This document shows, piece by piece, positions 764 through 39,664 of a stretch of DNA of 40,307 nucleotides. A program made the position numbers and the translations under genes. Position 1 is the first letter of the stretch. Each line of letters opens with the position of its first letter. The notes beneath the pieces are model-generated. The model searched no databases and was not told the origin of the DNA. It worked only from the letters and a program-made list of their open reading frames with translations. The DNA comes from an uncultured Clostridia bacterium (GTDB taxonomy: Bacteria > Bacillota > Clostridia > Christensenellales > CAG-917), in NCBI GenBank assembly GCA_947174215.1, contig CAMWIB010000001.1, positions 1 through 40,307 on the forward strand, given 5' to 3'.

Positions 764-1516
764 TCAACTTTCAGCATCATTCTCAATACTATCCGTAGGT
801 GCAGTCGATTGGTCGTTTTCGGGTGCCTTGTTGCCATTTTGCAGATACTCTTCAACGGCTTTTCGCTTAATCTCTTCTATGCGCTCTTCCTCGGTTTGCG
901 CCTTCTCGACGGCGGGAGTGCGTATCGTGGTTATGAGCTTCCATATAAGACAAACGAGCATAATGACAAGCGGCAATGCGATTATAAACGCAAAGCCCGC
1001 GCCGTTTTTGAATACGCCGAGTATCCAGCTTATAAACGCGGTCTTTTTCACCATAACCGCATTTATGGTGCTAAGCCTTACGGGGTCGTCCACTTTCGCG
1101 CCCGCCTTGTCGCCCTTCGTGAGAACCACGAAGTCGTTTATGGTTTCATCAAAATGCACGCCTTTCACTATGCGGTGGGTAACTTCTCGGCCTTTCATAG
1201 TCCCGCTTTCGGCGGTGTACGTTATAACCACACCTTCGACAAATAGTTCCGTATCGTTCTCGTTCACGGTCTTGCTGAGAATAACGTCGCCCACGTTTAT
1301 GTTTGGCGTCATAGAATCGGTTACAATATAGTAAAAGCGATGATTGAACAGCGACGGCGCTTTGCCCTGTCCGACTTGAACCATTATAGCCACAAAAGCA
1401 ATGAGAACTGCGACAAAAACGACGGATAACACAATGGTTATCGCGCCGCCTATTATCTTTTTCCAATTCTTAGTAGAATCGTTATTCTTTTTTGCCTTTA
1501 CGCTTTTTCCTATCAT
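764..1516 (-). CDS. sipW: Signal peptidase I, SipW/ER-type (S26B-like), paralog 1, with a second TM helix and acidic cytoplasmic tail
   Basis: 250 aa. N-terminal TM helix (IIGGAITIVLSVVFVAVLIAFVAIMV); Ser box VTDSMTP; His box VTHRIV; TKGD...KVDDP box. A second TM helix (FAFIIALPLVIMLVCLIW) is followed by EEIKRKAVEEYL and an acidic tail. Its 5' end overlaps the upstream gene by 35 nt. Confidence 0.85.
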   Translation of the reverse strand: MIGKSVKAKKNNDSTKNWKKIIGGAITIVLSVVFVAVLIAFVAIMVQVGQGKAPSLFNHRFYYIVTDSMTPNINVGDVILSKTVNENDTELFVEGVVITYTAESGTMKGREVTHRIVKGVHFDETINDFVVLTKGDKAGAKVDDPVRLSTINAVMVKKTAFISWILGVFKNGAGFAFIIALPLVIMLVCLIWKLITTIRTPAVEKAQTEEERIEEIKRKAVEEYLQNGNKAPENDQSTAPTDSIENDAES

Positions 1517-3581
1517 TTTGCTTTGCCAACTTTTTGCGCTCTTTTTGCAGTTGCTTTATCTCGCGCATTTTATCTGCAATAACCTTTTCGATATCCTCGC
1601 TCTCGCCATAGTTGAACGCAATCTCGGAGAGTATTTGCAAGTTTTTCAATCTGTCGCTTTCAAGTATAAGCTTTACGCTATCCTCTATGACGCGCAAAAC
1701 CTGCGCTTCCTTGCGTTCCTTATCGACAATCTTATGAATCTCGGCTTTTTCCTTCTCGTTGATTTTCGCCCAGTTATCGCGTATACCGAGGTTTATAGCG
1801 GTACGTCTTTCGTTTTCCCAGAATCTGACGTTCTCCTCTCGCAAGCGTTCGAGGGTTTCAAGCTTATTCTTTTCCGTCTGTTGTGCGGACTCTCTCTTTG
1901 CCGCGGCTATATTGAGCAAGCTTTCTCGCTGAGCTTCGACAGTCTGCTTTTCTATCTCTATCCTCGCTTCTTCATCGACCTGACGGCGACGCTCGGCCTC
2001 CAATTCGCTCTCCTCTTTTTTATACGCTTCGATAGCCCTGTTGTACTCTGCAAGCGCCGCGTCGTATTCCGCCTGCGCGCTATCGTGCTTTGCCTTGGCT
2101 TCCGCAAGCTTAGACGACACTTCCCTGCGGTAGCGCTCTTCAAGCTCCTTATTCCTTTCCTTTATCTCGTCAAGCTCTTTCCTCTGCGCCGCAAGCCTCG
2201 CTTCCTCTTCTTCCTGCTTGCGTTTAAGCTCCGCTTCCTCCTCTTGGAGTCGCTTTGCCTCGGCGATATCCTCTTCCTCTTGACGTTTCAGTTCCAAACG
2301 CTTACGCGCCCTATCCGCACGCAAGCGGCGTTCCAAGTCCTTCTTCTCGCGTAAGGCAAGGAGCTTTGCCTGCTTCTCCTCTTGCAACTGCTTCTCAATA
2401 AGCTTCTGCCTCGTTACACTATCCTCTTTCAATTTATTGATGCGATACTGGCGTATAACGCGGTCAAGCGCGCCGTTAATCTTGTTAATTTGCGGAATAG
2501 TAAGAGTTTTCTCGGTTGGTATCTTCTTATAAATGGTTCGAATCTGCTCGATATCCATTTTGAGCTGAGGGAAATCGTCCGGCACGTAATCGTCGATATT
2601 CTTCGTGACGTACTCGTCGGCAAGCACCTTTTCCTTTTTCTGTGCGCTCTCCAAGCTCTCGCTCGTTTCATGAGTGGAAGCGATAGACTGCATCAGTATG
2701 GTGTTGAGATACACGATTGCGCGGAACTTATCCGCCATAGTCGGATTCATTTCCACCGTTTCCGTGCTTGTTTCCACCTTATATTCCATCTTCTCGCTTG
2801 TTTCGATATACTGCCACAGAACGAGCGCTTTCTTAAAGTTCGGGTCTTTCAGAATTACGTTCGTACGCTGAATCGGCGGTCTGACAAGCGCGCAGGAGCG
2901 CATTTCTCTTGCGAACGGACTGCCCAAGAAGTCGCTGATAATGGACTTTATACGGTTGATTCTGTCAAGGTCGGATACGCCGCCGCCCGAGCGTTTGACA
3001 ACCGCGTCAAACGGGAAATTCGCATTGCTGTTCATTTCGTAGCGAACCTTATTCTTGTTTACGGCGAATTCGCTCTCGACCTTTACGCCAAGCTCGCCGC
3101 TCTGCATAAGCGCGCCCTTGATTGCGTTGCTTCTTATCTCGATAAAGTCCTTGATTTTCAACAAAAGTGTGTATATAAAGCGATTTTCGTAAATCTCAAA
3201 GCTCTCTTCTTTTGACGTATTGAGAATCTTGGACGGGATAACCATTCCGTCCTTCGTAACCGACGATATCAAATTGGTATGCTGACTAAGGTGCTTGACG
3301 GACTCGACGGAAATACTGCGAGCCAAGGATATATCCACTATATCCTCTTCGATAACGATGAATTTACGCGGGTTACGCACTATGGTATCGAGCGCGACGA
3401 TACAGTCCTCCAAGGTGTCAATCCACTCGGTGGAATAGTTCTTCTTCGTATAAACCTGCGAAATCTTATAGTCGTTCTTTCCGCTGTCGATACTCTCGAC
3501 GTATTTGGGATATAGCTCACCCTGCTTCAATAAGGTGACTATCTGATAGACTATCTCTTCGTAAATCTTAGTACTCGCCAT
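1482..3581 (-). CDS. DUF2357/McrC-N-terminal-like protein fused to a long charged coiled coil; no nuclease domain seen
   Basis: 699 aa; RBS AGGGTGA upstream of the ATG.
- N-terminal ~330 aa carry the McrC/DUF2357-like box EESFEIYENRFIYTLLLKI (compare E. coli McrC NEDTLANRIIKSTL).
- A downstream segment reads PPIQRTNVILKDPNFKKALVLWQYI.
- Residues ~385-690 (nt ~1500-2430) are E/K/R/A/L-rich heptad-like sequence.
- The protein ends in the polybasic KKRKGKKE.
- I could not find a PD-(D/E)xK motif. Confidence 0.6.
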   Translation of the reverse strand: MASTKIYEEIVYQIVTLLKQGELYPKYVESIDSGKNDYKISQVYTKKNYSTEWIDTLEDCIVALDTIVRNPRKFIVIEEDIVDISLARSISVESVKHLSQHTNLISSVTKDGMVIPSKILNTSKEESFEIYENRFIYTLLLKIKDFIEIRSNAIKGALMQSGELGVKVESEFAVNKNKVRYEMNSNANFPFDAVVKRSGGGVSDLDRINRIKSIISDFLGSPFAREMRSCALVRPPIQRTNVILKDPNFKKALVLWQYIETSEKMEYKVETSTETVEMNPTMADKFRAIVYLNTILMQSIASTHETSESLESAQKKEKVLADEYVTKNIDDYVPDDFPQLKMDIEQIRTIYKKIPTEKTLTIPQINKINGALDRVIRQYRINKLKEDSVTRQKLIEKQLQEEKQAKLLALREKKDLERRLRADRARKRLELKRQEEEDIAEAKRLQEEEAELKRKQEEEEARLAAQRKELDEIKERNKELEERYRREVSSKLAEAKAKHDSAQAEYDAALAEYNRAIEAYKKEESELEAERRRQVDEEARIEIEKQTVEAQRESLLNIAAAKRESAQQTEKNKLETLERLREENVRFWENERRTAINLGIRDNWAKINEKEKAEIHKIVDKERKEAQVLRVIEDSVKLILESDRLKNLQILSEIAFNYGESEDIEKVIADKMREIKQLQKERKKLAKQNDRKKRKGKKE

Positions 3582-3594
3582 TTTTCACCCTATT

Positions 3595-5160
3595 TTAGAA
3601 CAGCTTCTTCAATCTGTTGAGGTACTCTTTGCACTCCGTCATATTTTCCTCGCCGAAATGGTCGTTTAAGTACTGGATATAGTCGTCAACCTCATCTCTG
3701 ATGTATGCGAGGTTCAAGGATTCGAACTTACGCAGAATCTTGTTGCAGAGGACGTAATCCAAGCCGTCTATCTCCGTACCGCCGCAAGCGACGTACACGG
3801 GTACGAACTCTTTGAGCTGCTTGACGATACGGTTACCAAACGCAAGACGGAAATGCTCAATGACGTAATCGTCCATTTCCTCGAACTTCTTCATATTCTC
3901 TTCGCTGACCTTATGCTCTTCCTGCGCCTTCTTAAACAGACTTTCAAGATAGGTGTAGTCGATAGGCAAGCCTTCGGTTAGCGGAGCGTCAAACGGCGCG
4001 GCTTTGGAGTTTATGTTTATCGGCATACCACGGTCGTAAACCTTATCGGATATTGCAAACGTGGAGTCGTCGTTGTTTGCCGTACCTACGTACCACATAT
4101 TCTGCGGAAGCGCAAAACGTCCCTTTACGACGTGCTTCGGGTCGCTCGGCCAGCCGCTCGGAACGAGGTCTACAACCCACTGGTCGCGGGACGGCATTTC
4201 CAAAATAGACAGCATTTCCGCGAAGTAGTACTCGACACGCGCGATGTTCATTTCGTCGAGAACGGTTATATAGACGTTCTTATTATACGTAGCGTCGTAC
4301 ATCGCCTTCAAAACCTCAGTTTCGTTGAAACGCTTGGTAAATTCGTTGAAGTATCCGAAAAGCTCCGTTCTGTCACGCCACGACGGCTGAACGGATGCAA
4401 TCGTCGTATCATTTTTAAGGAAGTGTCCTAAGCACTCGGGAAGAGAAGTTTTACCTGTACCCGATATACCTTGCAGGATTATAAGGCGCGTAGTCGCAAG
4501 CGAGGCAAAGAACAGACGGATAATCTTTGGTTCGTAGTAAAGCTTACGCCACGGACGGTCGGGATTGTTTGCGGCGTAATTTCTGAATCTGTCGCAAATC
4601 TGCTCCAACGTATAGTCGTAGCACTCGAATTTCTGCTCTTCGAAGTCGGGCGCAAGATATTTGTTGTCAACCTCCGTAAGCTTGTAGAAACGGCTCTCGC
4701 CCTCTTTCTTCTCGCTTGACGTGTCCTCTCCCTCTTCGCCTTCTATGATGTCATAGCCTTGATACGCCACTTTGAGTCCTAAGATTCTATCCTTTTCCCT
4801 CGTGGTTTTGACAAGCTCTTTTTTGAGCGTATTTATCTCGTCAACGAGGTCCTGATTGAGAACCTTATCACCGAATATCTTTTTGAATAAGCGTTTTGTC
4901 CAGAAAATGGCCTGCCACAAAAGTACGCCGAACACGGCGATTACGAGAATAAAGCAGAAGATTGCGCCAACCAACTCGCCCGTGGACAAAGAATCCTTAT
5001 AGTTGTTAAAGACTGCAACGTACTCGGGAATATTGAACATCTGATACAACGCGCCGAGTATACCGCCTGAATTTCCTATTGTCGGTGACGAGAAGAATAT
5101 ACCAAGTATACCCCCAAAGAAAATCTTGATAAAATCAAGAAAAAAGTTGCCGAACGTCAT
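3595..5160 (-). CDS. Membrane-anchored McrB-family AAA+ (AAA_5) NTPase, probably a GTPase
   Basis: 521 aa; RBS AGGGGGAG.
- Two N-terminal hydrophobic helices (aa ~5-27 and ~62-87), then a short coiled coil and an acidic linker.
- Walker A LQGISGTGKT (nt 4447-4470).
- Walker B plus the McrB signature VLDEMNIARVEYYFAEMLSILE (nt ~4200-4263).
- VGTANNDDSTFAISDKVYDRG, with NNDD matching the N-x-x-D GTP-specificity box of McrB. Confidence 0.75.
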   Translation of the reverse strand: MTFGNFFLDFIKIFFGGILGIFFSSPTIGNSGGILGALYQMFNIPEYVAVFNNYKDSLSTGELVGAIFCFILVIAVFGVLLWQAIFWTKRLFKKIFGDKVLNQDLVDEINTLKKELVKTTREKDRILGLKVAYQGYDIIEGEEGEDTSSEKKEGESRFYKLTEVDNKYLAPDFEEQKFECYDYTLEQICDRFRNYAANNPDRPWRKLYYEPKIIRLFFASLATTRLIILQGISGTGKTSLPECLGHFLKNDTTIASVQPSWRDRTELFGYFNEFTKRFNETEVLKAMYDATYNKNVYITVLDEMNIARVEYYFAEMLSILEMPSRDQWVVDLVPSGWPSDPKHVVKGRFALPQNMWYVGTANNDDSTFAISDKVYDRGMPININSKAAPFDAPLTEGLPIDYTYLESLFKKAQEEHKVSEENMKKFEEMDDYVIEHFRLAFGNRIVKQLKEFVPVYVACGGTEIDGLDYVLCNKILRKFESLNLAYIRDEVDDYIQYLNDHFGEENMTECKEYLNRLKKLF

Positions 5161-5176
5161 TTACTCCCCCTTTCAC

Positions 5177-5962
5177 TTATGCCAGATAGTCGCCGACGAA
5201 TTGCAGCGAACTGAGCATAGCTGTCTTTTCTGCTTTACCGTTATCAATATCCACACCGCTGTACCAAGCGACGAGCCTCATTTTTTTGGTCGCACCCTCT
5301 GCGATAGTAAATGTTATTTCCTCACTCTTCGATATCATCTCAACCGCGCTCTGCTCATATATCGGCGTACCGAGCGCGATATCTCCGTAATATAGCTTTT
5401 CACCGCCGCCCATAATGCCTACGAGTACGTCGTCTACAAACAACGCCACGCAAAGCGCGTCCGCGTTATCTCCCTGAATATCGTACTTGACTATCACTCT
5501 TTGCGCAAAATCGGCATTTTTGTTGGTCAAATAGAATACTTCATCACCGTCTATTGACTTACAGTCCGTCGGAACCTCGGAACGAACCACTCCCGCATAG
5601 AAGTAAAAATCGCCTTCCGAGTCGTATGCCTGCGCCGCGGAATGGAAGTTATTCTCGCTCGTTTTATCCGAGATAATCGCAATAAAAGACTCGTAGCTCT
5701 GCCCTATCTGCGGCTTGTTCTTTGGAATCATCGGGCGCATATCTACATTGTTTGCAAAGCTAATCTCAAAGCCGTCCTTCGCGTCCGCCGCCCACGAGAT
5801 AGCAAGGTCGCCACCCGCCTCGTTGTTTGCAGAAGCCTTAAAGGAAATGACGGATACGTTGACCGCATTGCTCGCCGAGAACCATGCAAAAGTAGCCGTA
5901 GACAATGCTACCAGCAAGAGTAATACCATTATTATCGACGTCAAAACCAATCTTTTTTTCAT
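5177..5962 (-). CDS. TasA/camelysin-like secreted protein with SipW-type signal peptide (paralog A)
   Basis: 261 aa. Signal MKKRLVLTSIIMVLLLLVALSTATFAWFSASN. Family motifs shared with paralog B: VISFKAS, PMIP, FYLTN, VALFVDD, LVGIMGG, YGDI, ITFTI. C-terminal box LVAWYSGVDIDNG...LQF resembles the CalY/TasA C-terminus. RBS AGGGGA. Confidence 0.75.
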   Translation of the reverse strand: MKKRLVLTSIIMVLLLLVALSTATFAWFSASNAVNVSVISFKASANNEAGGDLAISWAADAKDGFEISFANNVDMRPMIPKNKPQIGQSYESFIAIISDKTSENNFHSAAQAYDSEGDFYFYAGVVRSEVPTDCKSIDGDEVFYLTNKNADFAQRVIVKYDIQGDNADALCVALFVDDVLVGIMGGGEKLYYGDIALGTPIYEQSAVEMISKSEEITFTIAEGATKKMRLVAWYSGVDIDNGKAEKTAMLSSLQFVGDYLA

Positions 5963-6043
5963 ATCGCCACTTTCCCCTACTTGTTTTTCTATTTCCCGTT
6001 ATTTATTTTCAGTTCTTCTGTTTCCTATTTTGTTTCGTATGCT

Positions 6044-6811
6044 TTATACTGCCTCGCTAAACGTCAGCGAGAAGCTCGTACTCTTGTTTCCGTTTTCGTT
6101 CTTCATATCGACGCCGTCAAGCCACGCCGCAAGACGAATGCAAACCGAGCTATTTCTCGGTACGGTGAACGTGATAGAACCCGTAGCCTTGTATGCGTTT
6201 TCCATAACGGGCTTGTTGTCCACGACCTCGCCGACCTTTATATTGCCGTAGTGAATGCTTCCCGAGCCTGACATAATGCCAAGCAGTGCTGAATCTTCTT
6301 CCTTTTCTCCAACAAACATCGCTATATGCAGTTTTTCTTTAAGCTCGCCGACGACAGTGTACTCAACCTTAACGGTGATATCGTTTTCAGGCGCAATATT
6401 GTTGATATAAAAGTATTTCTGTCCGCCAACCGATAGTAGCAACGGAGTAGCCGCCGTACCGTCAAGCATTGCGACGAGCTGACCCGCGCCGTCGAGTCCT
6501 TCGAAGGTTTTTTGGAACTGCATAAACTGTGCAAGCTTCGTGCTTCCAATCACTCCGTCAACGGTTGGTATCATCGGGCTTATTTTCCCCGTAGTATCGA
6601 AGGTAAGTTCCGTTTCCTTTGCTGTCTTATCTTTTCCTATGGTAAGGAATCCGCCGACGTCCGACGAGGACGAGCGGAAACTGATTACACCTGCGCCTAC
6701 GACGTTGTTCGCACTATACCAAGCGTAGGTTGCCGTAGAAAGCACGACGAAAAGCAGGACTATCATAAGTCCGATAAAAGCTATTCTTTGAAGATGCTTC
6801 CGCTTTTCCAT
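6044..6811 (-). CDS. TasA/camelysin-like secreted protein with SipW-type signal peptide (paralog B)
   Basis: 255 aa. Signal ...LLFVVLSTATYAWYSANN. Colinear motifs with paralog A: VISFRSS, PMIP, FYINN, IAMFVGE, LLGIMSG, YGNI, ITFTV, LAAWLDGVDMKN. RBS AGGAG lies 6 nt upstream of the ATG. Confidence 0.75.
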   Translation of the reverse strand: MEKRKHLQRIAFIGLMIVLLFVVLSTATYAWYSANNVVGAGVISFRSSSSDVGGFLTIGKDKTAKETELTFDTTGKISPMIPTVDGVIGSTKLAQFMQFQKTFEGLDGAGQLVAMLDGTAATPLLLSVGGQKYFYINNIAPENDITVKVEYTVVGELKEKLHIAMFVGEKEEDSALLGIMSGSGSIHYGNIKVGEVVDNKPVMENAYKATGSITFTVPRNSSVCIRLAAWLDGVDMKNENGNKSTSFSLTFSEAV

Positions 6812-6820
6812 TGCCTACTC

Positions 6821-7840
6821 CTAATTACACGCGAAGCTGAGCGACAGCTGTACCTCGCCGTTGACAATCTTGTCTACGCAATCGCTATCCCAGCCCTCGA
6901 ACCATATAATTATCGAATACTTTACCTTCTCACCGGCGGCTATTTTCAGCCCGTCGTTGTAGATAGCGTATTCGTCGCTATAAAAGAATTCCGTCATCCA
7001 AGGGTCGTTACCCTCTGCCTTTACGATGTGATACTCGCCGTTCTCGTCTTTTGCAAGCTTCCTTTCCGTATATCCTGACGAGATAGGCACGACTTCCTCT
7101 CTTTGCAGGTCGCCATCTTGCTCAACACGCACTTTATCCTCTCCATTTAGATAGTAGAACCCCTCGTTATCGGAAAAGATTCTTCTTCCCTCGGAATCAA
7201 GTTTTATATAATTTCCGTCCTCGTCAGTCTTTGGCGCGGCGTAAACGAATATCTCGTCATTGCGTATAAGCATAACGCGGAGTGCCTTTTGCGCGCCCAA
7301 CGTAGCTATATCAAAGCTGACGCGCTCACCGTACACCTTTTCCTCGGAGGTGATGTTTTGCATATAGAAGGTTCCCGCGATGAAATAATCGTCCACACTC
7401 GTGATACTTCCTTCGCCGCTGACAATCTCGATAAGTCTATCCTCGATTGGCGTAGAGTGAACGATATTCTTTCCGCTTGCGAAGGTAGTGTTCGTCATCT
7501 CGTTCGGACCGATAATCTCTATCATTTCGCTTCCCGGTACCATACTGTTGTGTGGAGATAACGTCAAAATTCTTCCGCCCGACGGCTCGATATAAATTTT
7601 GAAATTGTTTATTCTGACTGCGGAATAAAATCCGTAAATGCCGCCGACAAGCAGCAGTAAAATGAGCAATATAATACCGACAATAATAATTGCCTTTTTA
7701 TGTCTTGTAAGCGCACGCGCTTTTTTATTTTGGACGACGTAGGCGTAATCGCTGTGTTTGGGAGCGTTCTTTTGCTCGCTCTGTCCCTCAGCGTTTTCGA
7801 CGGTATCCGTCGTTACGTCATTTTTTGGTTTCTTCGCCAT
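6821..7840 (-). CDS. Divergent TasA-like family member with a long cytoplasmic N-terminal tail and one TM helix
   Basis: 339 aa. About 50 aa of polar or basic N-terminus, then the TM helix AIIIVGIILLILLLLVGGIYGFYSAV, which ends in a variant of the family motif (YGFYSA versus FAWFSA). Body motifs: FYMQN, LRVMLIRNDE. C-terminal box IIIWFEGWDSDCV...LSLSF. RBS GGAG. Confidence 0.6.
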   Translation of the reverse strand: MAKKPKNDVTTDTVENAEGQSEQKNAPKHSDYAYVVQNKKARALTRHKKAIIIVGIILLILLLLVGGIYGFYSAVRINNFKIYIEPSGGRILTLSPHNSMVPGSEMIEIIGPNEMTNTTFASGKNIVHSTPIEDRLIEIVSGEGSITSVDDYFIAGTFYMQNITSEEKVYGERVSFDIATLGAQKALRVMLIRNDEIFVYAAPKTDEDGNYIKLDSEGRRIFSDNEGFYYLNGEDKVRVEQDGDLQREEVVPISSGYTERKLAKDENGEYHIVKAEGNDPWMTEFFYSDEYAIYNDGLKIAAGEKVKYSIIIWFEGWDSDCVDKIVNGEVQLSLSFACN

Positions 7841-8091
7841 AAATTTTTCTCCGTCCGTAAGCTACCTCGCTTGCGCCCAAGTAGCCTGTCTAAAACTCTT
7901 TGCGAAAATTTATTCGCGGTTCGTTTCAAACACGACGGATAAATTTTCCCCCTCATTCATCGGACTAAACACCGTCAGTCCGACCTCTCATAATTCAGCC
8001 TTGTTGGAATCGCTCTCGCTTTTCTATGATTCCTTAGCATTCTCGGTTTTCAAATATCATTTCTCTCAAATGATTTCTGCTTTCCCTTGGG

Positions 8092-8865
8092 TTATTCGTT
8101 CTCTTCCCCGTTTTCCTCTTTGCTTTCCTCTTCCTTATTCTCGTTCTCGCTCTCGTCCTTATTCTCTTCTTCGGCCTTGTTCTCTGCGCCGTTTTGGCTT
8201 GCGAGATACTCCTCTATCGCCTTTCTCTTAATTTCCTCTTCGTCAATAGCGCCGCCACCGTTCGCCTTTACCTTTTCCATCTTCCACTGGAATATCATAC
8301 GAATGAACATTGCGATATTCCACAGGAACAGCAAGCCAAGCGGCAATACGATTATGAGCAGGAAATGCGTAGGCTCTTGCAACCAGCTTATCGACTTACC
8401 AACACCCTTCAAGTGCGACTTGTATACCGCAAGTACGTTGTAGGGGTTGACCGTTTCGTTGCTACCCTCCGGGTTTGCGTCACCGTGAGTGATATACGTA
8501 AGCGCATTTCCGTCGCTATCTCTTACAACCTCGATAATTCTGTGGGTAATAAGCGCGTCGTAGCCGTTTATACTTCCCTTAAAGGTGATTATCTGTCCCT
8601 CTTGCAGTTGCAGGACGTTCTTTGGATTGCCCGCAATAACCAAATCGCCTTCCTTGAAGCTGTCCTTCTGGTCGCCGTCCATTGAGCCTGTCAAAACGGG
8701 CAATAGCTTTACTCCGCCCTTTGCCACGTTTGCGGATACGGGATTCGGATTGGCGATGATGATTGCCGACGCTATAATCGCAATCAAAACGACCACAACC
8801 TCGACGCTCGTCACGACGATATCTATTATCTTCTTTTGCTTTGGTGTAAGTGTAAGTTTCTTCAT
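8092..8865 (-). CDS. sipW: Signal peptidase I, SipW/ER-type (S26B-like), paralog 2, with a second TM helix and acidic tail
   Basis: The ORF track starts at a TTG at 8892, but the ATG at 8865 is preceded by GAAGGAG at 5-nt spacing, so I use 8865. TM helix, Ser box VLTGSMDG, His box ITHRII, THGDANPEGSNE. A second TM helix (FLLIIVLPLGLLFLWNIAMFI) is followed by EEIKRKAIEEYL and an E/N/K-rich tail. Confidence 0.85.
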   Translation of the reverse strand: MKKLTLTPKQKKIIDIVVTSVEVVVVLIAIIASAIIIANPNPVSANVAKGGVKLLPVLTGSMDGDQKDSFKEGDLVIAGNPKNVLQLQEGQIITFKGSINGYDALITHRIIEVVRDSDGNALTYITHGDANPEGSNETVNPYNVLAVYKSHLKGVGKSISWLQEPTHFLLIIVLPLGLLFLWNIAMFIRMIFQWKMEKVKANGGGAIDEEEIKRKAIEEYLASQNGAENKAEEENKDESENENKEEESKEENGEENE

Positions 8866-9140
8866 GTTGCTCCTTCTGTCACAATTTTTCAACTGTGCGC
8901 TATATAAGGCGGCTTTCGCCGATAATTTTCCTCTTTATCCCGACAATACCCGTCCGCAGACGGCACTGTCTACACTGTATCGCGTGCGAGTACACGCTCG
9001 CGCCTTACGCACGCATACGCGCGTAAAAAAATAAATGAATAACAAGCATTCTCTGGGACCCCGCAAACGTCCTCTAAGGGGTACCCGCGAAACCTCCGCG
9101 TTTCGTGGGGTAAATTTGTAGGGTTGATAAAATGCTTATT

Positions 9141-9175
9141 CCAACCTCTGCGCGCACACTGCACGCAGAGGTTGG
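9141..9175 (-). terminator. Hairpin (terminator or attenuator) after the candidate major-subunit gene
   Basis: Perfect 12-bp stem CCAACCTCTGCG (9141-9152) / CGCAGAGGTTGG (9164-9175), 51 nt downstream of the stop at 9226. The minus-strand 3' flank AATAAGCATTTTATC is only moderately U-rich. Confidence 0.55.
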
Positions 9176-9225
9176 TAAGTAATCAGATAGTCAATTTTGT
9201 AAATAGGTAACGTTTGTTACTTAGA

Positions 9226-10179
9226 TTAGTCGTTGTTTGCAGCAGCTACACCGCTAAACATCACCGTAAACAATGCACCGGTTCCTGCATAAGCGTTGGT
9301 GTGGCTGTCGCCTTCAAACCAAGCAACGAGTTGAACTTGTACGCCACCCATTGGTGCAACACTTGAAACAACGTTTTCAGCAGTGCCGCTTGCAGTTGCC
9401 GTATAGTTGCTGTGTGCCGCAGGCGTATCTCCTGCCGCAGGACCACCTGCGCCAATCGTGATATTTGCATATTGGACAGCCGCTTGCTCTGACGAAGCCC
9501 AAGTTCCAACATACTTTCCGTCAATAAACATAGCAACTCTCAGGAACGGATTTGCCTTCAATTCATAGTAAGTAGTGCCAGCTTCCGCAGTTGCACCAGT
9601 TTGAGTCGCTTCATAAGCGTCACCGTTCTTCGTATAAAGTCCTTCGACGGATTCGCCCGCATTAACAGCCTTCTCCGCATAGTAGTTAGGATTGATAGTA
9701 ACGGCAGCCGAAATTCCGCTGGCGACACCACCGACGTTGGTTACGTAGAAGCTATCTTGCTCCACTGCCGATGAGCCTGAACCTTTAACATCAGTAATAG
9801 CCGCAACTTGTGTTGTCGTAGGCGCAGAAGCATAATTGCCTGCGTTATCGACAGTATATGTAATAAATGCGGCTTTGAAATCTGCATACGTAGTTGTGCC
9901 AACAACAGGTGCAGTTGCCGAATTGTACATAGCAGGATTGATTGCCTGATTCATGGTGATGTCTACCGAAGATTGGTTAGCAGTACTGCTGGTAGCCTTT
10001 GCAGTGTCGATAACCAAAGATGCACTGGTAGAATTTGCCGACGTAACAAGCGTTTCGGTAACCGTAGCGTTGCTTTGCGCCGTATACCATGCAAAGGTTG
10101 CAGTGGACAGTGCAACGACAAGGAGTAACACCATTACGATGGTGGTTACTACCATAGATTTTTTCATTGTCTTTTTCAT
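9226..10179 (-). CDS. TasA/camelysin-like secreted protein, candidate major fibre subunit
   Basis: The ORF track starts at 10191, but the ATG at 10179 is preceded by GGAGAAAGTT (an RBS), giving MKKTMKKSMVVTTIVMVLLLVVALSTATFAWYTAQSN. The body is rich in A/T/S/G/V. Family motifs RVAMFIDGKY and VQLVAWFEGDSHTN...FTVMF. It is the only family gene with its own long upstream regulatory region and a downstream strong hairpin. Confidence 0.75.
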   Translation of the reverse strand: MKKTMKKSMVVTTIVMVLLLVVALSTATFAWYTAQSNATVTETLVTSANSTSASLVIDTAKATSSTANQSSVDITMNQAINPAMYNSATAPVVGTTTYADFKAAFITYTVDNAGNYASAPTTTQVAAITDVKGSGSSAVEQDSFYVTNVGGVASGISAAVTINPNYYAEKAVNAGESVEGLYTKNGDAYEATQTGATAEAGTTYYELKANPFLRVAMFIDGKYVGTWASSEQAAVQYANITIGAGGPAAGDTPAAHSNYTATASGTAENVVSSVAPMGGVQVQLVAWFEGDSHTNAYAGTGALFTVMFSGVAAANND

Positions 10180-10257
10180 AACTTTCTCCATTTTTTATTT
10201 CTTTTTTATTTAACGGTCCGCGGGAATGATTTGGTTGTTTATCGCTGATTGCGCAAA

Positions 10258-10380
10258 TTAAGGTTTTGTGTCGGGTGCTTGCTCCTTATATAAAAGTCGC
10301 AAACAACATATTTCCGCTTTCACAGTCCCGTCATTTACGCCATTGACCATCCTAATTATCCCGAAGTCCGTTTTTTTCAT
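10258..10380 (-). CDS. Candidate 40-aa small ORF or leader peptide upstream of the major-subunit gene
   Basis: Not in the ORF track because it is too short. AGGAG lies 6 nt upstream of the ATG at 10380. Translation: MKKTDFGIIRMVNGVNDGTVKAEICCLRLLYKEQAPDTKP, stop TAA at 10258-10260. Its 48-nt leader is a paralog of the leader of the 540-aa gene, with identical motif-to-ATG spacing. There is no homology evidence. Confidence 0.3.
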   Translation of the reverse strand: MKKTDFGIIRMVNGVNDGTVKAEICCLRLLYKEQAPDTKP

Positions 10381-10398
10381 TTTTTGCTCCTATATATA

Positions 10399-10428
10399 GC
10401 GTTTATTACGCATATATTGCATTTTACA
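10399..10428 (-). promoter_or_regulatory. Repeated 30-nt leader/promoter-like module, copy A
   Basis: GCGTTTATTACGCATATATTGCATTTTACA matches copy C (12221-12250) at 26 of 30 positions. It sits exactly 18 nt from the sORF start codon. The minus-strand reading has an AT-rich core (TGCAATATAT) that could act as a -10 element or an operator. Confidence 0.45.
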
Positions 10429-10444
10429 GTTGCCGCTATACCCC

Positions 10445-10469
10445 ATTTACTGCGTATATATCGCGTTTT
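10445..10469 (-). promoter_or_regulatory. Repeated leader/promoter-like module, copy B
   Basis: ATTTACTGCGTATATATCGCGTTTT matches copy C (12223-12247) at 22 of 25 positions. It lies in tandem with copy A, 16 nt away. Confidence 0.4.
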
Positions 10470-10476
10470 TGCCCAT

Positions 10477-10571
10477 ACGTGATGAGTTTTACGCTTATTT
10501 TTTGCATTTTCGCATACTCACTTTATTTACACACTTTTCTCACTTTTGTGCGAACGTAATGAGTTTTGCGC
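10477..10571. repeat. Pair of 18-nt direct repeats in the regulatory region
   Basis: ACGTGATGAGTTTTACGC (10477-10494) and ACGTAATGAGTTTTGCGC (10554-10571) are identical at 16 of 18 positions. Their starts are 77 nt apart. Confidence 0.5.
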
Positions 10572-10579
10572 GTTTGCGG

Positions 10580-12202
10580 CTATTTTGCAAGCGGAAGCTT
10601 TTTTGCTCCCTTGATTGCGTTTTGTATTATTCTTACAGGGCTGCCAACTATATCGCCCTCGATATTTTCCATTCCGTGAGAAAGGAAATATTTTGCTTCT
10701 TTGACCGAATTCACGTAGATTGCAGAGGTCCTTATACCCTGAACCTTGGCGTATCCCAACACCATATCGAGATGTGCGGTCTTTTTTACGTCCTCTTCCT
10801 TATAATAACGGGCGTCGAAGCGCAGATAGTCGATATTATATTCAGTCAGAACCTTCAAGCCTGCGTTCTCGGTGTTGTCTATCATTATCTTTACACCGTT
10901 TTCGGCAAGCTGTCTTATTCCAAACAAACCCCTATCTCCCAAAGCTTCAAGCAAGGCGCAGTCGAAAGCCAAAACCAGATTGCCGTTTTCCGTCTTTGCG
11001 CTCTTGATAAGCCTCTTCAATATATCGTCCTTTATAAGCAAACGCGCCGATGCCTGCGTAACGAATACCGTATTCGGGTTTTCGTCGCAGTCGCTTGCCG
11101 TCTGCTTTACGCTAAGGAGATTGAGCGTTTCTATTCTCTCGCTACCCTCTGCAACCGCAAAAAACTGCTGAGGAAGCATCTTTCCCAAGAATTTGTCGTT
11201 GAGAACCTGTTGCACCGTAACGTACGCAATTTCGTTCTCATTCGTGCGCGCCGCGTTATAGAAGTACACGATAGGCTCCGTCAGCGCAACCGCACCCTTT
11301 ATCGTCGTAGCCTGCTGTCTGAGAGCTTCGAGCTTTTCCCTGCCTTCCTTTTCTTCGAGGTCGAAGTCGTCACCCATAAGCTCGGCGACTATATCCTTAT
11401 ATAATTCGCCTTCTATCGGCTCGTATTCCTTGCCGTCGAACTCGCCCTCTTCGGGCTGTATCTCCTCAAAGCCATCTAAGACGGCTTCGGGATTGAATGG
11501 ATATCTCTCCGCATACGCGACGGGAACGTAGTAGTCCTTCTTCGTCAGTTCGTACTTCTCAGCAAGGGTTTTTAGGATATCTAACGCACTCTTTATAGAT
11601 TTTCCGTCTTTTTCACGCTTGACGTCAGTCGTACCGTTAAGAGCGGAAATTCTAAGCATTTTATCCTCAACGGAAAGAGCAAGAATACACTCTCCGTTTA
11701 TGTAAAACCTCTCCTGTTTGCTTATAAAACGTCTTTTTACGTCCGCGTATGCGAGCAACTCGTTTTTAATCTTGCCGTACGCAAGCTTGACCGAGTTGGG
11801 CGCAAGGCGCAACCTGTTTTCAAATACGTTTTTGAGTATCTCTCTGCCATACGCGTCGTACGCACCGCTTACGCCAATCTCGTCCGCGTCCTCTTCGGTG
11901 TCGTTGGCATTATACTCTACTTCTTCCTCTGCCTCTTCAACAGCTTCTGCAACTTCGGCAACCTCGGCAACATCTGCAACTTCATTGCTTGACTCGGCTT
12001 CGATTCTTTTGCTTGCAAATTCGTCGGCGTTTTGCTCTGTTTCGACAGATTCGGCGGATTTTACATCCATTTCGATATCATTAAGTACCGTTTCAACAGT
12101 ATTGACATTCGCTTCCTCTGTTTCAACAGATTGCGTGAATGCTTCCTCCGTTTTGGCAGAATCCGCGTTTATTTCCGCTTTTTCGACAATATCCGCTTGC
12201 AT
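10580..12202 (-). CDS. Cytoplasmic protein with an acidic N-terminus, an unknown middle domain and a C-terminal degenerate EAL-like domain
   Basis: 540 aa; RBS AAGGGG 6 nt upstream of the ATG; no signal peptide. The C-terminal ~240 aa (nt ~10583-11305) are colinear with EAL-domain blocks, but the catalytic residues are replaced:
- FFAVAEGSERI corresponds to FIxxAEExGLI.
- VKIMIDNTENAG corresponds to the ialDDFGtG block.
- DYLRFDARYY corresponds to the dxlKiD block.
- IRTSAIYVNSV corresponds to the vvAEGVEt block.
- IEGDIVGSP corresponds to the QGyxfsxP block. Confidence 0.55.
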   Translation of the reverse strand: MQADIVEKAEINADSAKTEEAFTQSVETEEANVNTVETVLNDIEMDVKSAESVETEQNADEFASKRIEAESSNEVADVAEVAEVAEAVEEAEEEVEYNANDTEEDADEIGVSGAYDAYGREILKNVFENRLRLAPNSVKLAYGKIKNELLAYADVKRRFISKQERFYINGECILALSVEDKMLRISALNGTTDVKREKDGKSIKSALDILKTLAEKYELTKKDYYVPVAYAERYPFNPEAVLDGFEEIQPEEGEFDGKEYEPIEGELYKDIVAELMGDDFDLEEKEGREKLEALRQQATTIKGAVALTEPIVYFYNAARTNENEIAYVTVQQVLNDKFLGKMLPQQFFAVAEGSERIETLNLLSVKQTASDCDENPNTVFVTQASARLLIKDDILKRLIKSAKTENGNLVLAFDCALLEALGDRGLFGIRQLAENGVKIMIDNTENAGLKVLTEYNIDYLRFDARYYKEEDVKKTAHLDMVLGYAKVQGIRTSAIYVNSVKEAKYFLSHGMENIEGDIVGSPVRIIQNAIKGAKKLPLAK

Positions 12203-12220
12203 TTATTTCCCCTTATTATT

Positions 12221-12250
12221 GCGTTTACTGCGTATATATTGCATTTTACG
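12221..12250 (-). promoter_or_regulatory. Repeated 30-nt leader/promoter-like module, copy C
   Basis: GCGTTTACTGCGTATATATTGCATTTTACG sits exactly 18 nt from the ATG of the 540-aa gene and overlaps the stop of the upstream 227-aa gene. Confidence 0.45.
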
Positions 12251-12929
12251 CTTGTTCTGCACCTTCCTCGTCGGTTTCGGGAACGACGACTACCTGTATG
12301 GTGACCTGTATCTTTTCCGCATTCCTTATGCTTGGATAGCAGAGGTCGTCAACCTGTCTGAGATACATCGTGGTGTTAAGCGTTATATCCGCACTGTCGT
12401 CCACGGTGAATTTGGTTTTTGACGGCGTTTTCCAATCGTCTTTGGTTATGGAGAACGTATTCATCTCTCCGTTGCCGCCGATATACTTCCATTCAAACTC
12501 TATTTCCACGCTTAAATCATATTCCAGACTGAGCTTTTCCTTGCTTCCGTCGGCGAAAACCATATATACGTCGCAAGTTATCGCCATTTCCGCCTTATTC
12601 GATTGCTTATCGCTTTCGTTCTTGTAGCGGAGCATACTTTCCTTGCTCACGACGGTCGCGGCTTCCACCACGTTTTCACCTACTTCAAGCACGTTAAAGT
12701 TCAATACGTTATCAGTTATCGCGCCTTTTTTGGCTACTGCGGGCTTAATTGCGTCAAGCGTATATTCGTTTTCATCGAAGTACACGACGAGGTATCCGTC
12801 GGCGCTCATTTTGAACTGATTATCCGCGCCCGCGCTACTCGTATACCACGCAAAAGCGACTCCGATTGCGGCAACGCACAGCGTAATTGCAAGGCATACG
12901 GTGATTATAATGAGAGATTTCTTTTTCAC
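12246..12929 (-). CDS. Divergent secreted protein with SipW-type signal peptide
   Basis: 227 aa. GTG start preceded by GGAGG at 9-nt spacing. Signal MKKKSLIIITVCLAITLCVAAIGVAFAWYTSSAG. It overlaps the upstream gene's stop by 4 nt (GTGA). Confidence 0.65.
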   Translation of the reverse strand: MKKKSLIIITVCLAITLCVAAIGVAFAWYTSSAGADNQFKMSADGYLVVYFDENEYTLDAIKPAVAKKGAITDNVLNFNVLEVGENVVEAATVVSKESMLRYKNESDKQSNKAEMAITCDVYMVFADGSKEKLSLEYDLSVEIEFEWKYIGGNGEMNTFSITKDDWKTPSKTKFTVDDSADITLNTTMYLRQVDDLCYPSIRNAEKIQVTIQVVVVPETDEEGAEQA

Positions 12930-13702
12930 TCGTCCGCACCTCCGCCTTCAACCGTGCCGCCCTCTACGATATGCGCGGCGATTCCGACCTCGACCGTAGC
13001 GGTGAACACCGCCTTCATATTCTCATAGCCGCAATACGCAAAAGCCTCGACTTCATCATATTCCTCACTAAGCCAATGTGCGTAACTTACTTCGTCAAGA
13101 AATATCAGCTTGAATATCAGCTCCACCGTGACAGCCTCGGGAACTTCGTAGTAAACGAGTTCTCCGCCCGCCTCGCGGCAAAGAAAGCCGTCCTTGTCGG
13201 GACCGTACGACTCACCGTCTATCTCTATACGCCAAGTAAAACAGTCCAAAATCTCGGGCGTACCGTCATTTCCCACCGAGCTTACGTGTTCACCCGTAGA
13301 GCGGGCAATCTGCATTGCAGAGATTCTTGCAGTCATCGCAGAATCACTTCCCAAAGGGCTGAACGTAACGGTAAGTTTCTTGGCGACCACGTAGGGAGCG
13401 TCAACTCCGTCGAATTCGTCGCCATCGTAACCCTGCCCCGTTTCACCTTTATACAGTTTAGGCTCGAAAGGCTCCTCGTTTTCGATAAAGGTATTCGCGC
13501 CCGCCGCGGCGGTTATAGTCGTAGCCGTCGTATCCACTCTCGTCTGAGAAACGAACCAAGCATAAGTAGTCACGGTCAGAGCAAGCACAATCGCGACGAC
13601 GAGTATTTGGATTGAGATTACGATAACCTTCTTTTTCACGCCAATTTGTCCATTATTTTTAGAGTAACACAAGAAAAATCGAATTACAAGGGGAATTTTC
13701 AT
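12926..13702 (-). CDS. Divergent secreted protein with SipW-type signal peptide
   Basis: 258 aa from the first ATG. It contains VKKKVIVISIQILVVAIVLALTVTTYAWFVSQT. By analogy with the paralogs, the GTG at 13639 may be the real start. Neither start has a clear RBS. Confidence 0.6.
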   Translation of the reverse strand: MKIPLVIRFFLCYSKNNGQIGVKKKVIVISIQILVVAIVLALTVTTYAWFVSQTRVDTTATTITAAAGANTFIENEEPFEPKLYKGETGQGYDGDEFDGVDAPYVVAKKLTVTFSPLGSDSAMTARISAMQIARSTGEHVSSVGNDGTPEILDCFTWRIEIDGESYGPDKDGFLCREAGGELVYYEVPEAVTVELIFKLIFLDEVSYAHWLSEEYDEVEAFAYCGYENMKAVFTATVEVGIAAHIVEGGTVEGGGADE

Positions 13703-38845: not shown

Positions 38846-39431
38846 ATCTACACTTATATTCCTCATCGTTGCCATCACAATTGTGAGTGTGCTTGCCGTG
38901 AGCGGTATATCCTATGCAATCTGGACGAAAGTATCAGAGGACAATCAGGAGCTTAATTTGCCTATTGCCGATTATAATCCATCTGAAAAATACATTATCT
39001 TCCGCGGACTTGACGAGGATAATAATTTCTCCGACGTAACGGGCAAAGAAACTGTCGCGTATGCCGCAGTAGGCTACGATAGCGCGAGCCTTGTTGCAGA
39101 GGTTATCATTCCTTCCGAATATAAGCCGTCCGATGATGCGGAAGCAAAGCCCGTAATAAAGATTTGCAACAGCAATATTGGCACAGATTCTCAACATATG
39201 TTTATCGGCAATCCTATAATTACGTCAATCGTGATTCCCGCAAGCGTGAAAGAAATTGCCGTTTCCGCGTGTGCAGAGATGTCATTGCTTGAAAGTATCG
39301 AGATTGAGGGAGAGGATGAAATAACTATCGGCGACTACGCGTTTGCAAACTGCCCTCTTCTTCAAACCTTCACCTGTAATAGAAACGTCGTTGGCGCAAG
39401 AGAGCTGTATCTTATGGGAAGCAATCTCTAA
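38820..39431 (+). CDS. Small secreted BspA-type leucine-rich-repeat protein with a SipW-type signal motif
   Basis: 203 aa. GTG start with AAGGAG 7 nt upstream; overlaps the end of the upstream gene by 26 nt. Signal MKKISKLNKSTLIFLIVAITIVSVLAVSGISYAIWTKVSEDN. LRR_5-like segment SIVIPASVKEIAVSACAEMSLLESIEIEGEDEITIGDYAFANCPLLQTF. Confidence 0.7.
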   Translation: MKKISKLNKSTLIFLIVAITIVSVLAVSGISYAIWTKVSEDNQELNLPIADYNPSEKYIIFRGLDEDNNFSDVTGKETVAYAAVGYDSASLVAEVIIPSEYKPSDDAEAKPVIKICNSNIGTDSQHMFIGNPIITSIVIPASVKEIAVSACAEMSLLESIEIEGEDEITIGDYAFANCPLLQTFTCNRNVVGARELYLMGSNL

Positions 39432-39602: not shown

Positions 39603-39664
39603 ATTTAATGTAATATATACAGTAAATAAACGGAAATTATTCCGAATAAATTGTGAGGCAAATT

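Follow-up and report, generated by a model that had tools for sequence, protein, structure and literature searches.

The 40,307-bp contig CAMWIB010000001.1 (GenBank assembly GCA_947174215.1), from the metagenome-assembled genome (MAG) of an uncultured member of the Clostridia (Christensenellales, CAG-917), encodes a system in which small secreted proteins and two SipW-type signal peptidases share an operon with a membrane-anchored relative of the McrB nucleoside triphosphatase (NTPase), a DUF2357-containing partner and a degenerate EAL protein. The entire contig was analyzed and is referred to below as the window. An earlier note on the same DNA had described the operon as a TasA-like fiber locus with seven substrates, and all of the open reading frames (ORFs) that it listed were recovered, in position and in length, as it had them. 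The features of the minus-strand operon are as follows, ordered by coordinate, with family matches from hidden Markov models (HMMs) given where the text does not return to them.

764..1516, minus strand: SipW-like signal peptidase A, 250 aa
1482..3581, minus strand: McrC-like partner, 699 aa, with Pfam DUF2357 at aa 58-156
3595..5160, minus strand: membrane-anchored McrB-family AAA+ NTPase, 521 aa
5177..5962, minus strand: secreted β-sandwich subunit, 261 aa, LSTATFAWFSA (family HMM over the full length, E 2e-73)
6044..6811, minus strand: secreted β-sandwich subunit, 255 aa, LSTATYAWYSA (family HMM over the full length, E 1e-62)
6821..7840, minus strand: bitopic 339-aa paralog, with a transmembrane (TM) helix ending in GGIYGFYSA
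8092..8892, minus strand: SipW-like signal peptidase B, 266 aa
9135..9179, minus strand: strong stem-loop with a weak U-tract
9226..10191, minus strand: Ala/Thr/Ser/Gly-rich subunit, 321 aa, LSTATFAWYTA (family HMM over the full length, E 4e-63)
10580..12202, minus strand: cytoplasmic degenerate EAL protein with an acidic N-terminus, 540 aa (Pfam EAL, 52.9 bits)
12246..12929, minus strand: secreted 227-aa protein, GVAFAWYTS
12926..13702, minus strand: secreted 258-aa ORF, TVTTYAWFVS

A second, divergent operon on the plus strand contributes three more proteins.

13866..35111, plus strand: giant 7081-aa surface protein with Flg_new, YDG and MBG repeats (Pfam)
35108..38845, plus strand: 1245-aa surface protein with a C-terminal TM anchor and an acidic tail (weak Flg_new and MBG_2 matches)
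38820..39431, plus strand: 203-aa protein with a signal helix ending in SGISYAIWTK and a BspA-type leucine-rich repeat (LRR) domain (Pfam LRR_5, 31.6 bits)

Read in the direction of transcription, from 13702 to 764, the minus-strand operon begins with the 258-aa gene (probably 237 aa), whose stop overlaps the start of the 227-aa gene, and continues with the 540-aa gene, a 388-nt spacer, the 321-aa gene, a 333-nt spacer containing the strong hairpin, the gene for the 266-aa peptidase and those for the 339-, 255- and 261-aa proteins. It closes with the 521-aa gene, the 699-aa gene and the gene for the 250-aa peptidase, the start of which overlaps the end of the 699-aa gene. In the plus-strand operon, successive genes overlap: the stop of the 7081-aa gene coincides with the start of the 1245-aa gene (35108-35111), which in turn runs past the start of the gene for the 203-aa LRR protein. 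The earlier statement that the two peptidases bracket the operon is correct for the block of 339-, 255-, 261-aa, ATPase and DUF2357 genes, which they do enclose, but the 321-aa, EAL, 227- and 258-aa genes lie upstream of both. A search with Rfam found no RNA element, such as a cyclic di-GMP (c-di-GMP) riboswitch, in the long spacers, and its sole match in the window is a tRNA-Asn gene described below.

The 521-, 699- and 540-aa genes, which the earlier note had passed over, are the conserved heart of the system. The 521-aa protein begins, as judged by hydropathy and an alignment of 32 orthologs, with two TM segments (residues ~5-24 and ~58-86) surrounding a conserved G..G...Q.F....Y loop, followed by a short heptad region and an AAA+ core with the Walker A motif GISGTGKTS, the Walker B motif LDEMN and an NNDD signature. 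A phmmer search against the PDB matched residues 213-414 to McrB structures 6hz4, 6ut6 and 7vsr at E values of 9e-6 to 2e-5 (9e-6 for 6hz4), with the segment TANNDDS aligning at the region equivalent to MNxxDR of McrB. The NCBIfam McrB model, Pfam AAA_5 (22.5 bits) and the PADLOC candidate PDC-M26A (127 bits, over the AAA core) also matched the protein. The N-N-D-D signature fits either NxD or NxxD, and HMMER aligns NNDD to the NTAD of McrB.

The 699-aa partner has a highly conserved N-terminal domain containing DUF2357, which scored 30.4 bits against a gathering threshold of 23.3 when this domain was scanned alone without the tail. The protein has 1870 relatives, counted as clusters at 90% identity, many of them named 'DUF2357 domain-containing protein', and it possesses neither a TM segment nor a nuclease domain detectable with Pfam. 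Residues ~400-699 are proline-free, helical and 44-68% charged (E/K/R/D/Q), and the tail may be an ER/K-type single helix or a spacer rather than a classical coiled coil. Among orthologs, the tail varies widely in sequence and in length (534-895 aa for the total protein), and it is partly poly-acidic in the locus labeled L047.

The third protein of this group, of 540 aa, contains an EAL domain in which the catalytic positions have been replaced; relative to the EAL domain of PA3825, DDFGTG reads DNTENA, LKID reads LRFD, EGVE reads IYVN and QG reads EG. Moreover, glutamine in place of the EAL glutamate and arginine in place of the lysine are conserved in 23 orthologs. Because of these replacements, the domain is considered degenerate and the protein is not expected to hydrolyze c-di-GMP.

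A membrane NTPase of the McrB family joined to a DUF2357 partner and to signal peptidases has been described before, if briefly. Bell et al. (2024, eLife, PMC11090510) named CoCoPALM, in a single paragraph that deferred its analysis and offers no list of components, as a large clade of CoCoNuT-like relatives of McrBC (Type IV restriction) systems, and described it as having an FtsB-like TM segment and coiled coil on the McrB GTPase homolog, an NxD signature, a coiled coil on the McrC homolog (DUF2357) and associated signal-peptidase genes. A literature search returned no later paper on CoCoPALM and not the announced follow-up, and the available supplements of the eLife article add nothing. In the window, a conserved DL..E...L.....K...EKD..LG stretch follows the hydrophobic segments of the 521-aa protein, giving a topology that matches the CoCoPALM description. 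A search of this N-terminus for FtsB homology with Pfam gave no DivIC/FtsB match at E≤0.1. Judged on gene content and predicted domains, the locus belongs most naturally with this named, unstudied class, as a complete representative of it; the McrB-family NTPase, the DUF2357 partner with its tail and the associated signal peptidases, the descriptive features that could be tested, all match.

The identification of two SipW-type (S26B-like) peptidases is borne out by HMM scores and by conserved catalytic boxes. Against TIGR02228 (archaeal/endoplasmic reticulum-type signal peptidase I), which has a cutoff of 51.85 bits, peptidase B scored 54.7 bits and peptidase A 48.1 bits, 3.7 bits below it; against NF046067 (SipW of Bacillus), both scored 61-64 bits (61.5 for A), far under the equivalog cutoff of 190. 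On these scores, both would be classed as S26B-like enzymes and not as SipW equivalogs. Among 32 orthologs of A and 30 of B, conservation of the catalytic SM, TH(R) and G(D) boxes reaches at least 90%, and for this reason both peptidases look active. They share an architecture of N-terminal TM segment, S26B-type catalytic domain, C-terminal TM segment and cytoplasmic tail, and it is in this tail that a common motif resides. The tail of peptidase A carries IKRKAVEEYL and that of peptidase B carries IDEEEIKRKAIEEYL; the general form, (E)EEI[KR][KR]KA[IV]EEY[LI], was found in 26 of 32 A orthologs and in at least 22 of 30 B orthologs, is sometimes duplicated, and occurs nowhere else in the window. 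A common tail on both peptidases suggests a shared cytoplasmic docking partner. The C-terminus of SipW from Bacillus subtilis has itself been reported to have a role that is independent of its peptidase activity.

The proteins on which these peptidases would act were listed in the earlier note as seven equivalent substrates, each with a signal helix ending in the same short motif. The hydrophobic helix and the aromatic motif are largely real, but the seven proteins are not one family, for only those of 261, 255 and 321 aa are full-length paralogs, with the rest matching in part or not at all. The three paralogs share the sequence LSTAT[FY]AW[FY][ST]A, and in an alignment of 69 diverse relatives (21-40% identical) T22, T24, A26 and W27 of LSTATFAW are invariant. 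The body motifs that had been noticed earlier also survive in this alignment as conserved columns, namely P77/P80, F143-Y144-x-x-N147, A173/F175 and W233/G236. An exhaustive profile search retrieved 1716 representatives of the subunit family at E≤1e-3 (50%-identity clusters), and the family has no relative in Pfam or NCBIfam (69 relatives scanned) or in the PDB (profile searches). The AlphaFold2 (AF2) model of the 261-aa protein (pLDDT 84.8) consists of a helix at residues 2-30, a low-confidence linker at 24-49 and then a β-sandwich, and the segment following the motif is moderately conserved among the subunits.

In the 258- and 227-aa proteins, the family HMM recognizes only the N-terminal ~35-50 residues (E 5e-11 and 6e-5, respectively), and hhalign comparisons with the subunit family gave probabilities of 96% over 49 columns for the former and 95% over 33 columns for the latter. 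The part held in common is thus the signal helix, the motif and the first mature residues. The listed start of the 258-aa ORF lies 21 codons upstream of the start in all orthologs (V/MKKK...), and since the orthologs begin at the VKKK position, the product is probably ~237 aa, translated from an internal GTG start (VKKK...) at about 13639. The motif of the 203-aa LRR protein was not significant by the family HMM (E 0.2). Its inclusion in the set is nevertheless justified by context, with small LRR_5 proteins bearing YA[IF]W adjoining the system in three other loci, L015, L035 and L047.

Membership of these signals in the SipW-dependent class, as had been proposed, can be accepted only in part: the N-terminal motif is SipW-cognate-like, but the cutoff of TIGR04088, the model for that signal (19 bits; TasA, as a control, scored 41.6), was passed by the isolated N-terminus of the 227-aa protein alone (20.4 bits), with the 261-aa protein at 17.2 and nothing for the other five. 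Among the 69 family members, three gave weak matches. By these scores, the signal of the window proteins reads as a divergent variant of the SipW-cognate class.

The 321-aa protein stands apart from its paralogs. Its gene is preceded by the 388-nt spacer and followed, ~50 nt downstream, by a stem-loop with a folding free energy of -31.9 kcal/mol (z -7.8, with 0 of 200 shuffled sequences as stable), and the mature protein is 49% A+T+S+G, contains 2.7% K+R and has no cysteine. Orthologs occupy the same slot in L001, L005, L002 and L047. Because of the separate spacer, the hairpin and the composition, the protein looks like the major structural subunit, separately expressed, much as the earlier note had suggested. 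An intrinsic terminator was also sought after the gene; a simple scan made no such call because the U-tract is weak, the strong hairpin being present all the same.

The 339-aa protein has a different topology, with a ~50-aa cytoplasmic N-terminus bearing the invariant sequence Y-x-Y-V-x-x-N-K-K-x-R, a TM helix, and an extracellular β-sandwich with a W-F-E-G-W-D box. Its AF2 model (pLDDT 78.7) has a helix at residues 31-74, a poorly defined linker and the β-sandwich. The relationship to the subunit family is distant (HMM E 8e-4; hhalign probability 34%, E 4e-4, in the C-terminal W-x-x-G box only). Since the invariant cytoplasmic motif precedes the TM helix, the N-terminus would be kept and not cleaved off, and the protein is likely an uncleaved membrane anchor or platform.

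Whether any of these proteins is related to TasA was approached on several levels. Neither Pfam and NCBIfam scans nor hhalign nor PDB searches with family profiles gave a positive result, and TasA homology was rejected. Peptidase_M73, suggested earlier as a search model, had no match at E≤0.1 among the window proteins and none at E≤0.01 among the 69 relatives, and the NCBIfam models for TasA, BsaA, TapA and exp_by_SipW returned only noise in the same two sets, apart from the TIGR04088 score of the 227-aa N-terminus. The proposed homology to TasA and CalY likewise failed in an hhalign comparison of the family profile with TasA (0.4% probability). As to the fold, the two AF2 models (261- and 339-aa proteins) are β-sandwiches, yet Foldseek found nothing in the PDB at E<1e-3 for either; the best matches were generic jelly rolls of carbohydrate-binding modules, lectins and C1q, and TasA was outside the top 50. 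The archaeal filament subunits AbpA (rank 7) and Saci_0406 (rank 8) appeared at E 0.03-0.04 with TM-scores of at most 0.33, which is not significant, and with only non-significant jelly rolls on offer a fold assignment by Foldseek was abandoned and the appearance of these two proteins not taken as evidence. In sequence, then, the subunits are not TasA-like. An analogy does hold at the cleavage site: TasA, whose mature N-terminus was checked in PDB entry 8aur, is processed at T-W-A↓A-F-N-D, and the corresponding invariant motif of the window's subunits is T-F-A↓W-F-S-A (the arrow marking the cut in TasA and the presumed one here). The signal of CalY similarly reads TFA↓FFSD.

The context of the system was followed through public assemblies, using relatives of the subunit and of the ATPase, and synteny was counted in 15 non-redundant loci with enough flanking sequence. 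All 15 contain SipW-B, the ATPase, the DUF2357 protein and SipW-A, with the peptidases flanking the NTPase-DUF2357 pair; the EAL protein is found in 14, a 339-like protein in 13 by BLAST (the two others having a TM-anchored ORF at that position), and a STATFAW subunit in 12. The core is strictly syntenic, comprising the EAL, 339-aa, STATFAW subunit(s), SipW-B, NTPase, DUF2357 and SipW-A genes. The system occurs in uncultured Christensenellales and Clostridia from gut, rumen and digester samples, with a few host MAGs labeled Erysipelotrichaceae or Bacillales. In most loci the flanks read as housekeeping genes, judged from the N-termini of their products, and the locus is not part of a defense island. 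In the distant clade, by contrast, the upstream flanks of some loci (L038, L039 and L047) contain defense-like neighbors (SLFN_AlbA_2, AAA_14/DUF4143 and OLD-like ATPase N-termini). In the subclade of L020, L024 and L027 (and also in L022 and L023), the EAL protein is 920-1013 aa long and an ABC-transporter-like gene lies downstream.

Conservation falls steeply from the inside of the cell to the outside. Between the window and L001 or L002, the ATPase, the best-conserved gene of the locus, is 93 or 84% identical, the DUF2357 protein 71 or 53%, SipW-B 76 or 53%, and the subunits 53-56 or 29-31%. Viewed across loci, the ATPase is 84-97% identical and the secreted subunits next to it in the same operon about 29-55%. 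This gradient suggests diversifying pressure on the exposed proteins, and fits a constrained cytoplasmic machine combined with fast-evolving proteins at the surface.

The giant-adhesin module is a recurrent neighbor, accessory to the core. Giant proteins of 6-9 thousand residues adjoin the system in L001, L002-4, L005 and L047. In a different clade (L047, and similarly L035), the genes after the core encode a 273-aa protein with ATFAWFAS, a 219-aa LRR_5 protein with TAYAFWGG, a 201-aa protein with VSYAFFSV and a giant of 6459 aa; their counterparts in the window cluster at the divergent promoter region and comprise the giant and 1245-aa proteins together with the small 258-, 227- and 203-aa (LRR) proteins. 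In the clade of L037-L040, the motif stands at the start of proteins ranging from 700 to >1400 aa (SFSWYQ, SSFAWF or STFAYWQ), and because such large proteins carry it, the motif would mark a set of cargo that includes adaptor and adhesin proteins. The giant adhesins themselves were considered as direct, motif-bearing substrates and rejected, their N-termini lacking the motif in the window's clade. The 7081-aa protein has no LPXTG motif and no C-terminal TM segment, and the G+C content across its gene is 0.51-0.53, compared with 0.43-0.48 in the rest of the window. In the 1245-aa protein, residues 1148-1153 (38549-38566) read K-T-F-A-W-Y-W directly before the C-terminal TM anchor; the sequence shares TFAWY with the subunit motif and lies at the outer membrane interface with the opposite chain polarity, and may be coincidental (an aromatic belt) or constitute another type of recognition site.

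Taken together, the parts of the locus are best explained by an NTPase-coupled system for assembling surface fibers and adhesins, a reading to which we assign a probability of roughly 55%. Subunits would leave the cytoplasm through Sec and stay tethered to the membrane by the signal helix until cut by the two SipW peptidases at the invariant site T-[FY]-A↓W-[FY], by analogy with the T-W-A↓A-F of TasA. Cleavage would free the N-terminal segment, allowing the β-sandwich subunits to polymerize into a surface fiber, with the 321-aa protein as its main building block, the 258-aa, 227-aa and LRR-type proteins, which have the N-terminal module only, as minor or adaptor subunits, and the 339-aa protein, keeping its helix, as a membrane base. 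A heteropolymeric assembly by donor strands, as the earlier note envisaged, is a reasonable candidate hypothesis here. A hexameric NTPase with its McrC-like activator would sit beneath the membrane, coupled to the peptidases through their tail (IKRKA[IV]EEYL) and to the base through Y-x-Y-V-x-x-N-K-K, and would gate or power the assembly. Conceivably it could do so by gating the access of the peptidases, by pulling anchors from the membrane (with an FtsH-like topology), or by acting as an on/off switch for assembly. A regulatory input, possibly c-di-GMP, would come from the degenerate EAL protein.

Several points weigh against this reading. No experiment exists for any CoCoPALM system, and we know of no precedent for an McrBC-type motor in extracellular assembly. 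Foldseek returned no significant match to any filament subunit, and the giant adhesins of the window's clade bear no motif at their N-termini. The EAL domain is so degenerate that even its binding of c-di-GMP is uncertain. Finally, L020, L024 and L027 have the core and yet no STATFAW subunit within 10 kb; in this subclade the subunit genes may lie at another site, or the 339-like protein may serve as the sole substrate.

It is tempting to go further and suggest that CoCoPALM loci encode an unstudied class of surface-filament machine in monoderm bacteria, in which an McrBC-derived membrane NTPase ring, activated by a nuclease-less McrC homolog and linked mechanically or allosterically to both SipW peptidases and a TM base, drives or gates the polymerization, or the retraction or release, of peptidase-processed β-sandwich subunits that carry giant adhesins. 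This fuller proposal is speculative, and we regard it as possible rather than probable. Were it correct, the system would be an energy-dependent counterpart of TasA and AbpA fibers, unrelated to type IV, sortase or chaperone-usher pili, and a restriction-enzyme motor would have been co-opted for assembly at the cell surface.

The alternative that survives best, though still an unlikely one, is a LapD/LapG-like adhesin switch, in which the EAL protein and the NTPase would control the peptidases, these would process, release or retain the giant adhesins and small adaptors, and the β-sandwich proteins would be accessory. Conservation of the degenerate EAL protein in the core, the conserved cytoplasmic tails of the peptidases and the recurrence of giant adhesins with LRR adaptors beside the system in several clades would all be accommodated by such a switch. 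It sits poorly with giant proteins that have no cleavage motif, with the absence of any giant protein within 10 kb in L020, L024, L027, L030 and L032, and with the placement of the most conserved motif on small β-sandwich proteins, one of which looks like an abundant structural subunit.

Quite unlikely is an McrBC-derived (CoCoNuT-like) defense system whose variable secreted proteins would be surface decoys, sensors or receptor masks. The ancestry of the McrB and McrC homologs, the match of the ATPase to a PADLOC defense candidate, the published grouping of CoCoPALM with the CoCoNuT-like relatives of Type IV restriction systems (PMC11090510), the fast evolution of the exposed proteins and the defense-like neighbors of L038, L039 and L047 are consistent with a role of this kind, but the McrC homolog has no detectable nuclease and the McrB homolog no DNA-binding domain, most loci lie among genes that read as housekeeping, and the link to signal peptidases, an EAL protein and adhesins is tight. 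The ATPase and DUF2357 genes were also considered as a stand-alone defense cassette, and this was rejected on the grounds that PADLOC matched the AAA core only, that no nuclease was found and that synteny with the peptidases is strict.

Very unlikely is a plain enlarged biofilm operon of the TasA/BsaA type, self-assembling without energy and with the ATPase, DUF2357 and EAL genes as unrelated neighbors: SipW-like peptidases do adjoin proteins with a SipW-cognate-like signal, the modeled subunits are β-sandwiches, and TasA, AbpA and BsaA fibers, according to published accounts (PMC9674648, PMC9245690), need no ATPase, but the three supposed neighbors are syntenic in 14-15 of 15 loci with the ATPase best conserved of all, no Peptidase_M73/TasA signal emerged from HMMs, hhalign or Foldseek, and the common peptidase tail points to a cytoplasmic partner. 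A reading as type IV pilins was rejected as well, with the motif placed after the helix, no prepilin peptidase or PilB, and a helix detached from the globular domain in the model. The locus is not an ordinary TasA biofilm operon, and the presence of the NTPase, DUF2357 and EAL genes argues for a CoCoPALM-type system instead of an enlarged TasA operon.

If the function holds, fiber and adhesin assembly coupled to an NTPase would be a new way to build surface fibers in Gram-positive bacteria, and the first non-defense job shown for an McrBC-type motor. Since it adjoins adhesins of 6-9 thousand residues, the system probably shapes attachment to hosts, particles or partners, and it is common in Clostridia of the gut, rumen and digesters, as the 1870 DUF2357 and 1716 subunit-family clusters attest. 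The basic association of McrBC homologs with signal peptidases is already in print (PMC11090510); what the window adds is a complete parts list, which turns a mention of one paragraph into testable hypotheses.

Two features at the edges of the window complete the inventory. A tRNA-Asn (GTT) gene at 174-249 on the plus strand, recognized by Rfam, is followed by a terminator-like hairpin at 256-282, just past the 3' end of the fiber operon. At the other end, positions 39653-40195 (plus strand), downstream of the adhesin operon, encode a 180-aa multi-TM protein with DUF308 repeats that has no evident link to the system.

Comparison with known systems places the locus between several of them. Like McrBC Type IV restriction systems, it has an McrB signature region on an AAA+ core and a DUF2357 activator domain on the partner, but the partner is without a nuclease, the NTPase is without a DNA-binding domain and anchored in the membrane, and both are encoded in an operon for secretion and surface proteins. 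Type IV pili with FimX or LapD regulators follow a similar logic, by analogy only, in that an N-terminal module is shared by otherwise unrelated major and minor subunits, a peptidase is dedicated to them, and a cytoplasmic hexameric NTPase and a degenerate EAL regulator are present. In the window, however, an S26-type peptidase would cut after the hydrophobic helix, whereas pilins are cut before it by an aspartic prepilin peptidase; the helix stands apart from the globular domain in the AF2 model, the NTPase is of the McrB and not the PilB type, and there is no platform homolog. NCBIfam and Pfam scans found no gene for a prepilin peptidase or PilB-type ATPase in the window, and archaeal pilins in the PDB were matched only at E 0.5-6, from the hydrophobic helix.

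The archaeal filaments of AbpA (PDB 7ueg) and the threads of Saci_0406 (PDB 7pnb) are likewise made of β-sandwich subunits that are processed by signal peptidase I and contribute an N-terminal donor strand. They were the only filament subunits in the Foldseek top 10, with matches that are not significant, and their systems have no ATPase. In the TasA/TapA/SipW system of B. subtilis, CalY of B. cereus and BsaA-C/SipW of C. perfringens, as in the window, a dedicated S26B-type SipW is encoded together with its substrates, the signal closes on T-aromatic-A↓x-F, and the substrates are secreted β-sandwich proteins; BsaA fibers are anchored in the membrane (10.1101/2024.11.04.621531). Those operons have one peptidase where this locus has two, and the McrBC-like NTPase module and EAL protein that are obligatory here occur in none of them. 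The subunits here, moreover, resemble TasA/Peptidase_M73 neither in sequence nor in profile comparisons, and structural searches gave no significant match to it.

The closest counterpart is CoCoPALM, which, like the window, combines an McrB-family NTPase having an N-terminal TM and coiled-coil region with an McrC-N (DUF2357) partner having a coiled coil and with signal-peptidase genes in the cluster. Its NTPase is described with a single FtsB-like TM segment, whereas that of the window has two TM segments and a conserved loop. To that description the locus adds components that are not mentioned for CoCoPALM and are seen here, namely two peptidases with a common tail, the STATFAW family, the 339-aa paralog, the degenerate EAL protein and the giant-adhesin module.

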